This document shows, piece by piece, positions 15,206 through 18,293 of a stretch of DNA of 45,044 nt. The notes under the pieces were generated by a model. The model was not told where the DNA came from. It was given only the letters and a program-made list of their open reading frames with translations, and searched no databases. The stretch lies in the IMG/VR virus record IMGVR_UViG_2718217859_000007; one strand, written 5' to 3'. The position numbers and the translations under genes are program-made. Numbering within the stretch: position 1 is the stretch's first letter; each line of letters opens with the position of its first letter. The stretch is from a virus (lineage: Duplodnaviria > Heunggongvirae > Uroviricota > Caudoviricetes).

Positions 15206-16234
15206 TTATTTCACCTGAACCACCACAAACGCATCCGGATCCGGCAACACCATCAACGGCGCAGACTGCGTCATGGTATATTCACAACTTGGATCGCCAA
15301 TAACCTCCCAGTGTTTCGGATAACGCGTTGCAGAGGTGATCCCTTCACTCAGCGCCTGATTATCCTGGATTGCGCCATAGCAACGGACGCCCTCCGCCTG
15401 AGTGTTCCCCAGAATCAGTGTACCTTCCGGCAGATAACGCTGTTCATCCCCGTTTTCGTCAACATACGTTGTCTTCGCCACCACAATGGCCAGATCGCCG
15501 TAATGACCTTTAAAGGAAACCACGGAGCCCAGGTCTTTCAGTGCGGTTTCCAGCTCAGATTTGGAGCCGCGGCTGGTATCCAGTTTCTCACGGAACAGTT
15601 TAAAACCGTTCAGCATACGCCAGACCGTGCCGTCCATAATCGCGATATTGATGGTGCCGGAAGCGAAATCGCAGTACGCATCCAGATCATGCGTCGGATC
15701 GAAGGTGTCAGCATTCTGCTGTGACCATTCGCGTCCGCCAGCCTGCGTAATGTTATTGGCGGCAGAACGCCCAAAATCCACTTCCACCGTTTCAAACTGC
15801 TCGCCACTCATGGTGTATTTACCCTGCAGAACGGCACTGACCGCCTGCATTTCTTCCACCTGCACAATCGCCTGCTCTTCCTGTTTCAGGTTGTCCGTCA
15901 GAATACGCAAACGGCGGTAAGCCGGGTCATTAAGGCGGGCCGGATCTTCTCCCGGAAGACGTTCCACTGCCTGCTGATAATCAAAGCGGTGTTTTGGTTT
16001 TACATAACCAGGACGTAACACACGGGTTTCACCACCACGGCTGCGCAGCACTTTGCCTGACACCACCGGAGACACATACGCCGCAACCGGTGTTTTGCCG
16101 GTAATTTTATCCAGCATGACTTCCTGAGTATGGAAAGTGATCGTGCGACGAAAGAACAGCTCCAGAAACAGCGCACGAAATTTCACTTTCTGCTCGGTGT
16201 ACCCGAGTAACTGACGCGTGGTAAATAACCCCAT
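15206..16234 (-). CDS. major capsid protein (lambda gpE-like)
   Basis: 342 aa, alignable along its length with lambda E by recall (VSPVVSGKVLRSRGG, PGYVKPKH, VEEMQAVSAVLQGKYTMSGE, SAPLMVLPDPDAFVVVQ). Confidence 0.95.
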   Translation of the reverse strand: MGLFTTRQLLGYTEQKVKFRALFLELFFRRTITFHTQEVMLDKITGKTPVAAYVSPVVSGKVLRSRGGETRVLRPGYVKPKHRFDYQQAVERLPGEDPARLNDPAYRRLRILTDNLKQEEQAIVQVEEMQAVSAVLQGKYTMSGEQFETVEVDFGRSAANNITQAGGREWSQQNADTFDPTHDLDAYCDFASGTINIAIMDGTVWRMLNGFKLFREKLDTSRGSKSELETALKDLGSVVSFKGHYGDLAIVVAKTTYVDENGDEQRYLPEGTLILGNTQAEGVRCYGAIQDNQALSEGITSATRYPKHWEVIGDPSCEYTMTQSAPLMVLPDPDAFVVVQVK

Positions 16235-16302: not shown

Positions 16303-16638
16303 TCAGGCGTGGCTGATGGCACTTCCCACAAATGCGTTGGCTTTTTTCACCGCATCCACAGAGTCAGGCCAGACCAGCGACTCAGTGGCAAACGTACCGC
16401 TTTTGTAGTACGTCAGCATGGGTTCTGTTCCGGTAAGCGCCAGAGCCAGCACACCCACTGCCGTTCCGGCTTTCTGACCATCCCATGCCACCATTTTACC
16501 GGTGGTGTCATCCAGCATCAGCGGTGTCAGTGCTGGCGTGGCGGCACTGATACCACTGGTGGCAGTTGCGGTATGCGCCGGATCGCTTCCGGCAAAAATA
16601 TGCACATCTGCACGCTTTTCCGTGGTGGTTTTAATCAT
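16303..16638 (-). CDS. head decoration protein (lambda gpD-like)
   Basis: 111 aa; SDPAHTATA..TPLMLD..VAWDG..YKSGTF match lambda D by recall. Confidence 0.9.
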   Translation of the reverse strand: MIKTTTEKRADVHIFAGSDPAHTATATSGISAATPALTPLMLDDTTGKMVAWDGQKAGTAVGVLALALTGTEPMLTYYKSGTFATESLVWPDSVDAVKKANAFVGSAISHA

Positions 16639-16676: not shown

Positions 16677-18293
16677 TTACGGCATACTCATCAGCAGGTC
16701 TTCCTCCCCGCGCCCGGCAGTTCCGCCACCGGAAACCGCACTGGCAGCATGCTGGGCCATAAAGCGATCAAAAAGTGTTTCCTGTGACGGTTGCGATGCC
16801 GCCGGCACGGCTGCCAGCAGTGTTTTCGCCTGCGCCACCGTCATTCCTGGCTGTTCTGTCAGTGCCTGTGCAAGTTGTTCGCGCCCTTTCGCCTCCGGTA
16901 GTGCCATAATCTGCCCGCCAACACTTACAGAACCCGCAACCGGTGCCGCCGCCAGTAACGTTTTTGCCTGGTCAACGGTCATTCCCGGCTGTTCAGCCAG
17001 TGCCTGTGCCAGTTGTTCACGCCCTTTTGCTTCCGGCAGCGCCATAATCTGATCGCCTGTGCCTGCAGTACTGGCAGCAGGGGCTGCCGCCAGAAACGCT
17101 TTCGCCTGCTCCACCGTCATTCCCGGCTGACCTGCCAGCATCTGCGCCAGCTGTTCACGCCCTTTTGCTTCCGGCAGCGCCATAATCTGATCACCTGTAT
17201 TTGCCACACTGGCAGCAGGCACAGCAGCCAGGAAAGCTTTCGCCTGCTCAACCGACATTCCTGGTTGCCCTGCCAGCATCTTCGCCAGTTGTTCGCGTCC
17301 TTTTGCCTCCTGACAATTCAGGATCTCCATCACGCGCTGATTTTCCTGGGCCACAGCCTCAATGATCGAAACATTCGTTTGCGACATATTTACCTCTCTA
17401 TTAATTTCTTTATTTATTGCAGAAACCATCACTTCAACGGCATCTGCAGCATTAATCAGTTGATCAGCCAGGCCTGCATCAATCCCTGCCTGACCGTCAT
17501 AAACGGCAGCCTCGGTATTCATCACCGCCTCTGAACTCAGCCCCGTATAAAGCGCCACCTTGTCGACAAACATCCGGCGGGCCTCATCAATACGGCGCTG
17601 AAAATCTGCACGCACACCTGCCGGCAATGCCTGAATACTGTTGCCGTCAACCTTGTGCTGCCCGGAGTAAATCAGCGTGATGTCCACCCCTTCCTGTGCC
17701 AGTTGTTTCTCGTAACTGGTGTGCGCCATCATCACACCAATCGAACCAATTTTTGCCGTCTGCGTGACCAGCCGACGCGTACAGGCTGCCGCCAGCAACA
17801 TGGCGGCTGAACAGGCCATGTCATTACACAGCGCCCACACGGGCTTCTGTTCCCGCAGACGGTAAATCATGTCAGCACAGTCAAACGCCCCGGCAGCCTG
17901 ACCGCCCGGGCTGTCGATATCCAGCAAAATGCCGCGCACATCCGGATCATTCACTGCCATCTGAAGGCGGGCCGTCAGGCCGTCATAGCCTGTCATGCCG
18001 GAGTAAGGCCGCAGGGTACCCAGTTTATGCACCAGCGTGCCGCTCACCGGCAGAATGGCAATGCCATTCTTCACCTGGTAACTCTTTGCCGGACGCTGAC
18101 CACCCGCCATATAGTCAGTCACAGCCAGCTGCATACCATCAGCATCAAGCTGAACAGCCTGCTGAGGAACGGCAAGGCTGCCGGCCCCCATCTCTTTACC
18201 CAGCGCGCAAAAGAAAACCCGCGCATAGGCGGGTTCCAGTAAAAGCGGCTCATTAAATGCCATGGCGGCAATATGCGATAAATTACGACGCAT
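16677..18293 (-). CDS. prohead protease / scaffold (lambda gpC/Nu3-like) with expanded C-terminal repeats
   Basis: N-terminus HIAAMAFNEPLLLEPAYARVFFCAL matches lambda C; 538 aa vs 439 in lambda because of ~4 tandem ~46-aa repeats. Confidence 0.9.
   Translation of the reverse strand: MRRNLSHIAAMAFNEPLLLEPAYARVFFCALGKEMGAGSLAVPQQAVQLDADGMQLAVTDYMAGGQRPAKSYQVKNGIAILPVSGTLVHKLGTLRPYSGMTGYDGLTARLQMAVNDPDVRGILLDIDSPGGQAAGAFDCADMIYRLREQKPVWALCNDMACSAAMLLAAACTRRLVTQTAKIGSIGVMMAHTSYEKQLAQEGVDITLIYSGQHKVDGNSIQALPAGVRADFQRRIDEARRMFVDKVALYTGLSSEAVMNTEAAVYDGQAGIDAGLADQLINAADAVEVMVSAINKEINREVNMSQTNVSIIEAVAQENQRVMEILNCQEAKGREQLAKMLAGQPGMSVEQAKAFLAAVPAASVANTGDQIMALPEAKGREQLAQMLAGQPGMTVEQAKAFLAAAPAASTAGTGDQIMALPEAKGREQLAQALAEQPGMTVDQAKTLLAAAPVAGSVSVGGQIMALPEAKGREQLAQALTEQPGMTVAQAKTLLAAVPAASQPSQETLFDRFMAQHAASAVSGGGTAGRGEEDLLMSMP
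16780..17330 (-). repeat. tandem ~138-bp (46-codon) in-frame repeats inside the C/Nu3 gene
   Basis: CATAATCTG-containing unit recurs at ~16903, 17042 and 17181; protein repeats ALPEAKGREQLAQ(M/A)L(A/T)(G/E)QPGM(T/S)V(E/D/A)QAK..LAA.PAAS about 4 times. Confidence 0.8.

Follow-up and report, generated by a model that had tools for sequence, protein, structure and literature searches.

The 45,044-nt window analysed here (the whole stretch of IMG/VR virus record IMGVR_UViG_2718217859_000007, Caudoviricetes) belongs to a lambda-like E. coli prophage and contains on its minus strand a C-like gene of the lambda type (16677..18293; 1617 bp, 538 amino acids), in which an S49 prohead protease is fused to a scaffold part, and the scaffold part of this gene carries a tandem array of four in-frame 46-residue units. 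As a whole, the array is probably best explained as four tandem copies of a conserved lambda-type C/Nu3 scaffold module, which arose by old in-frame duplications and may give rise to a multivalent scaffold. The repeat is real but ordinary, being a long-established variant of a feature already annotated in phage 21.

Tandem Repeats Finder detected one strong tandem array in the whole window (16824-17310; period 138, 3.5 copies, 81% matches, score 533), and a second repeat search gave a start-to-start spacing of 138 for the array copies. The self-match at lag 138 within the array is 0.744, as against 0.316 ± 0.022 in codon shuffles (n = 2000; z = 19). In the minus-strand reading frame, the array consists of four 46-codon (138-bp) units spanning 16782-17333, namely unit 1 (17196..17333; residues 321–366; VMEILNCQEAKGREQLAKMLAGQPGMSVEQAKAFLAAVPAASVANT), unit 2 (17058..17195; residues 367–412), unit 3 (16920..17057; residues 413–458) and unit 4 (16782..16919; residues 459–504), which are followed by a non-repeated C-terminal tail (16680..16781; residues 505–538). 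A sequence-only reading of this DNA had reported about four copies with a period of about 138 bp at 16780-17330; copy number and period are both correct according to Tandem Repeats Finder and the in-frame translation, and the coordinates were right to within 3 nt.

About 35 residues of each unit are conserved, and the other 10 or so form a variable linker. The conserved stretch, with the consensus EAKGREQLAxxLAxQPGMTVxQAKxLLAA, is predicted to run from a short helix through EAKG into a helix-loop-helix. The further statement of the sequence-only reading, that each unit begins with Met, holds for units 2–4 (QIMALPEAKG), but not for unit 1, where the aligned residue is Leu (VMEILNCQEAKG) and a Met stands three residues earlier. 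The tail contains the conserved motifs LFDRFM and LLMSMP, which are common to phage 21 and Gifsy-1 and are recognisable in lambda as LDRLM and LLNTPV, while its residues L534 and P538 are invariant in the alignment of the window, lambda, phage 21 and Gifsy-1 proteins. A plus-strand open reading frame (ORF) of 173 amino acids (17013-17534) lies antisense to the array, and its own translation is repetitive (FTPFCFRQRHNLI...); it was rejected as a gene and is regarded as a shadow of the repeat, as homology and purifying selection are all found in the minus-strand frame.

The host protein contains an S49 peptidase domain at residues 146–290 (17424..17858, minus strand; Pfam Peptidase_S49, PF01343, E = 1.9e-33), and the 538-residue protein matches PHROG 53, head maturation protease (E = 4.5e-211). 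Among solved structures, SppA and ClpP alone match by sequence, both to the protease part, with the Bacillus subtilis SppA structures 4kwb and 3rst found by phmmer (E = 1.4e-16) and SppA also by Foldseek (E = 1e-7). Aligned end to end, the protein shares 56% identity with lambda C, 67% with phage 21 gp5 and 64% with the C homologue of Gifsy-1; Ser162 and Lys214 are invariant and are aligned with Ser166 and Lys218 of lambda. Mutation of lambda Ser166 reportedly abolishes gpC proteolysis, a result attributed to Medina and co-workers in 2010. The order of the genes (portal, S49 protease, head decoration protein, major capsid protein) is the same in annotated relatives. The first 11 nt of the C-like gene (18283-18293) are shared with the end of the portal gene, an overlap that those relatives also have. 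The C-like gene combines several features of a lambda-type C/Nu3 gene, namely an S49 domain with the Ser/Lys pair, a position between portal and capsid genes, and the conserved unit EA.GRE..A..LA..PGMTV..A...LAA together with the tail. Because of the protease identity and the end-to-end alignments with lambda C, phage 21 and Gifsy-1, the repeats are assigned from sequence to the scaffold part at the C-terminal end of a gene of the C/Nu3 type, in agreement with the location proposed by the sequence-only reading.

The same repeat is already on record in phage 21. The phage 21 head operon entry M81255.1, which we take to be that of Smith and Feiss (1993), marks gene 6 with three repeat_regions, named 'Tri1 box', 'Tri box' and 'Tri3 box', their function being entered as unknown, and these boxes overlap the three units found in gp5 by a hidden Markov model (HMM) of the unit. 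Genes 5/6 of phage 21 and the window gene are alike in being the same gene, located between portal and decoration/capsid genes, in sharing a module that is repeated in tandem and in frame, its units being 45–73% identical between the two, and in having a homologous Shine-Dalgarno (SD) sequence and ATG, at which the nested scaffold gene starts in phage 21 and is predicted to start in the window. They differ in the number of units (three in phage 21, four in the window), which makes them copy-number variants of the same repeat, and in that the three phage 21 units are more diverged from one another (45–50% amino acid identity) and conserved by position with those of Gifsy-1. The prohead protease of Salmonella prophage Gifsy-1 (lambda gpC homologue STM2605) is built in the same way, with three homologous units as against four in the window, and has a slightly longer C-terminal tail.

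Lambda gpC/gpNu3 shares with the window protein the Ser/Lys positions of the S49 protease, an in-frame nested scaffold (predicted in the window), an SD and ATG at the aligned Met309, a related C-terminal tail and one homologous unit (IMGILNCEEAHGREEQARVLAETPGMTVKTARRILAAAP), whereas it lacks any further unit and has in front of its single one a 36-residue Ser/Thr/Ala/Gln-rich insert, which is absent from the window protein. The single copy in lambda, as claimed by the sequence-only reading, was confirmed by alignment, and window unit 1 is the clear positional counterpart of this lambda unit (52% identity) and of phage 21 Tri1 (73%).

An SD-like sequence GAGAGGT (17392..17398, minus strand) is located 4 nt upstream of an internal in-frame ATG (17387-17385, Met303). 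The duplex energy with the anti-SD sequence is −7.7 kcal/mol at Met303 and −7.4 kcal/mol at the gene's own start, and Met303 is the best internal SD site apart from one located 4 codons before the stop. Met303 is aligned with Met309 of lambda and, in phage 21, with the annotated ribosome-binding site and ATG of gene 6 (gp6), and an SD sequence is present at the corresponding site of both lambda (CAGGAGGG) and phage 21 (AGAGGAGG). It is most likely that this SD and ATG also yield a separate Nu3/gp6-like scaffolding protein of 236 amino acids, its use as a start being what we infer from sequence conservation. The predicted scaffold ORF runs in frame within the C-like gene from Met303 to the stop (16677..17387, minus strand) and would encode a protein of 24.1 kDa with an isoelectric point (pI) of 4.8, 184 of whose 236 residues belong to the four units. 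The equivalent predicted products have 200 residues in phage 21 (from the gp6 start, Met302) and 131 residues (13.4 kDa) in lambda (from Met309), and the lambda size agrees with that used in later biochemical work on gpNu3. The lambda record J02459.1 (833-1438) annotates nu3 from residue 239 of C, with 201 amino acids, while the conserved SD and ATG are at Met309 instead.

A comparison of copy number among relatives, as proposed by the sequence-only reading, was run on the 120 best database homologues. The number varies, with three units being the commonest state (73 proteins), followed by four (41) and five (3), while two, one and zero units are found in one protein each. The four-unit form of 538 amino acids is present in Escherichia coli, Salmonella, Citrobacter, E. 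marmotae and E. albertii, and one cluster of it has 826 member sequences. In a wider search, a profile of the four units was run against 1.84 billion cluster representatives (50% identity; E ≤ 0.001) and matched 423 of them. Among the best 150 of these 423 matches, one copy is found in 137, two in 9 and three in 3, and in the long matched proteins the unit is located at a median of 48 residues from the C-terminus. A domain scan of 149 matched proteins found S49 in 66 and a ClpP-type domain in 19, the remainder being mostly short proteins or fragments. The general rule is thus one unit close to the C-terminal end of a protease-scaffold protein, multiple copies being a speciality of the enterobacterial phage 21/Gifsy group.

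The unit is without a Pfam family, and no single unit alone reaches a curated Pfam threshold; matches to DUF732, Peptidase_C23, Bac_DNA_binding, T2SSK and Casein were judged spurious, their scores being summed over the repeats. Several unusual partners of the unit among the library representatives (Nu1, gpA nuclease, tail protein L and tape measure protein) were dismissed, as the sampled cases are chimeric or truncated pieces of S49 protease/scaffold, and representative P0142 (3754 residues, 12 'stretches') is a repetitive protein unrelated to the units, which gave zero full-length unit matches when rescanned with the unit model.

The four units of the window differ at 20–38% of nucleotides (62–80% DNA identity, 54–80% protein identity), with 11–16 synonymous codon differences per pair. 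The synonymous divergence between units (dS, Nei-Gojobori) is 0.5–1.5 and thus near saturation, and the ratio of non-synonymous to synonymous divergence (dN/dS) in the 35-residue cores is 0.03–0.25, indicating purifying selection, while in the linkers between the cores the non-synonymous difference approaches the synonymous one. Since dS is near saturation and dN/dS of the cores is this low, the duplications are old and every core has long been maintained as protein. The word 'expansion' used by the sequence-only reading is therefore not supported if it is meant as a recent or unusual event, in view also of three copies being the commonest state in close relatives.

The phage 21 and Gifsy-1 triplication is ancient, because each unit is closest to the same-position unit of the other phage (71, 76 and 57% identity for the three positions), while neighbouring units are 45–50% identical. 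Units 2–4 of the window are 80–85% identical to one another in amino acid sequence, above their identity to any phage 21 unit, which implies a separate amplification or a past homogenisation of units 2–4 in the window lineage. Unequal recombination also appears to be ongoing, as hybrid and five-copy forms bear its marks. The first unit of the two-unit protein (P0092) is a hybrid of units 1 and 2, and a four-unit protein of the phage 21 type (P0067) also contains a hybrid unit, while another form (P0042) has four nearly identical units. In a five-unit relative of 578 amino acids (P0001; E. coli GCA_040149825.1, contig ABSWYI010000014.1, locus L005), the extra unit is identical to its neighbour at 128 of 129 nt (the two adjacent units occupy 2599-2856 of L005), which reflects either a very recent duplication or an artefact of the draft assembly.

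The helices of every unit were predicted by AlphaFold2 with a 56-sequence alignment at a predicted local distance difference test (pLDDT) score of 70–79, and the linkers at about 50 or below. Each unit is modelled as three helices, of which the first is short (DQIMAL), with the turn PEAKG between the first and the second (REQLAQxLA) and the loop xQPGMT between the second and the third (VEQAKxLLAA), and two more helices are predicted in the tail (residues 504–515 and 529–535). In the models, the unit is thus a putative short helix-loop-helix within a scaffolding protein and in this respect would resemble the helix-turn-helix of the P22 scaffolding protein and the related motif of phi29, a plausible analogy for the docking of a unit on the capsid protein. 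However, the P22 motif is single and located at the extreme C-terminus, whereas the window protein is acidic and has four internal copies followed by a 34-residue tail; the window units have zero sequence matches and zero significant fold matches to P22, and the analogy is functional only.

In the proposed mechanism, the C-like gene encodes the complete S49 prohead protease, the C-terminal third of which is scaffold, and the internal start at Met303 would additionally give a free 236-residue scaffold. Each unit may be an autonomous interaction module binding the major capsid protein or another scaffold subunit, so that a chain of four units would form a multivalent scaffold, while the array at the end of the protease may carry the protease into the procapsid, where it would subsequently destroy the scaffold. 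The array arose by old in-frame duplications and appears still to be altered by unequal recombination, giving the 2, 3, 4 or 5 copies found in relatives. The suggested role of the units is drawn by analogy with other phages. In lambda, an interaction of Nu3 with E in a yeast two-hybrid assay and a self-association of Nu3 are reported (PMC3224144). The scaffolding protein of P22 binds the capsid protein via a helix-turn-helix, and such a motif was fitted to density at the phi29 capsid protein (PMC9965877; PMC11922011).

Several observations weigh against a multivalent scaffold built from capsid- or scaffold-binding units. The units are not at the extreme C-terminus, unlike the motif of P22, and the conserved tail that follows them (LFDRFM ... 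LLMSMP) may just as well be what binds the capsid protein, in which case the units would serve in self-association. A single unit suffices in lambda, and capsid proteins that are 96–98% identical are paired with three units (Cronobacter, L006), four units (window) and five units (L005), so that the contribution of extra copies may be small; copy number therefore does not follow capsid type, and its variation is tolerated. The structure models are of moderate confidence (mean pLDDT 61 with the alignment and 53 without), and the scaffold part is without a sequence match in the PDB at E ≤ 10, chance matches to YopN excepted. Finally, the terminase gene of this prophage appears frameshifted, and this copy may thus not be actively used.

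An assembly error, by which the array would have been expanded or collapsed and the true copy number would be different, was raised as a concern by the sequence-only reading. Tandem repeats are indeed prone to mis-assembly, the window shows a difference in homopolymer length elsewhere (T6 versus T7 in the terminase gene), and the five-copy relative with its two nearly identical units comes from a draft assembly. However, units as diverged as those of the window cannot collapse, and reads are placed uniquely among them. The gene is covered at 80% or more in 104 complete E. coli genomes; in each of the best 60 complete E. coli genomes the length of the match departs from 1617 bp by no more than 9 nt and is in most of them exactly 1617 bp, at 94–96% identity, and proteins 100% identical over 538 residues are recorded from E. 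coli, from several sources. The chance that the array is an artefact is thus practically nil. The same reading had suggested multiple internal starts, by which the Met of each unit would initiate a nested product and a ladder of scaffolds with 4, 3, 2 and 1 units would result. The ATG codons at residues 371, 417 and 463 do occupy the same position in their units, and unit 2 has AGGTGA 6 nt upstream, but SD pairing at these three sites is weak (−3.8, −4.2 and −5.3 kcal/mol, as against −7.7 kcal/mol at Met303). Nor is the position conserved as Met: among homologues, 11 of 118 second units and 48 of 117 third units have Leu, Ile, Val or Thr instead, and first units nearly always have Leu or Ile, a pattern that fits a buried hydrophobic helix residue. 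With a single SD and ATG upstream of the array common to lambda, phage 21 and the window, and a single gp6 start upstream of the array in the phage 21 annotation, a ladder of nested products is very unlikely.

As to the function of the units, they may alternatively be degenerate helix-hairpin-helix or HU-arm-like nucleic-acid-binding motifs, through which the scaffold would contact DNA. The top Foldseek matches of the model of the Nu3 part are helix-hairpin-helix proteins (RuvA, RecR, XPF-ERCC1 and topoisomerase V), the weak summed Pfam matches include T2SSK and the N-terminal part of Bac_DNA_binding, and PGMTVEQAKxxL resembles, in our own reading, the helix-hairpin-helix pattern. Yet the scaffold-part model, with its mean pLDDT of 53, has zero significant Foldseek neighbours (all E ≥ 1), zero helix-hairpin-helix families of Pfam are matched at E ≤ 10, the scaffold is acidic (pI 4.8), and scaffolds generally exit the procapsid before or during DNA packaging, so that DNA binding is highly improbable. 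The array may also be a neutral spacer, in which extra copies are tolerated and have no role, with one unit or the C-terminal tail being functional. The need of lambda for only one unit and the presence of 2 to 5 copies among close relatives with near-identical capsid proteins are in favour of this explanation, but it is rather unlikely in view of the purifying selection on all four cores despite near-saturated synonymous sites, which the linkers do not share, and of the closer match of phage 21 and Gifsy-1 units by position than to their neighbours, which argues for long retention of each copy. At the other extreme, the number of modules (1 to 5) may be a selected 'valency dial' for procapsid nucleation, with specialised positions, to which the conservation of units by position in phage 21 and Gifsy-1 would point, and with synonymous divergence favoured as a guard against recombinational loss; this extension is speculative and has a low probability of being correct. 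A conserved scaffold module in four copies is the probable explanation.

The other genes of the same lambda-like head module are all located on the minus strand and include the terminase large subunit (20063-22020), a W-like gene (19851-20063), the portal gene (18283-19854), the decoration protein gene (16303-16638), the major capsid protein gene (15206-16234) and FI- and FII-like genes. The reading frame of the terminase large subunit is broken into two ORFs, one of 502 amino acids (20512-22020) and one of 153 amino acids (20063-20524). At the split site (about 20525-20530), six T are found on the minus strand, as compared with seven in an E. coli prophage with an intact terminase of 638 amino acids, and this difference is either a real inactivating frameshift, which would make the prophage defective, or a homopolymer sequencing error. 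Elsewhere in the prophage-like region, two adjacent tRNA genes are found on the minus strand, namely tRNA-Gly (tcc; 27170-27244) and tRNA-Thr (tgt; 27248-27323). Two short arrays with a period of 10 bp (35946-35992, GTCGTGACTC x4.6; 36241-36275, GTGACATGTC x3.5) both lie inside a minus-strand ORF of 346 amino acids (35369-36409) and are reminiscent of the origin iterons in a lambda O-type replication gene.

In phage 21 the repeat has been on record for three decades, and its four-unit form is a common one in prophages of enterobacteria, under the sole label 'S49 family peptidase'; the finding thus carries little weight as a discovery and is of modest value overall. It bears on annotation in two respects, as automated annotation leaves out the nested Nu3-like gene, and as the old GenBank record of lambda has the nu3 start at a Met different from that of the SD and ATG conserved in lambda, phage 21 and this prophage. 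It also documents the lambda-type scaffold as built from a countable module, which is present in 1 to 5 copies, and the natural copy-number variants whose capsid proteins are near-identical offer an existing series for relating scaffold valency to procapsid assembly.

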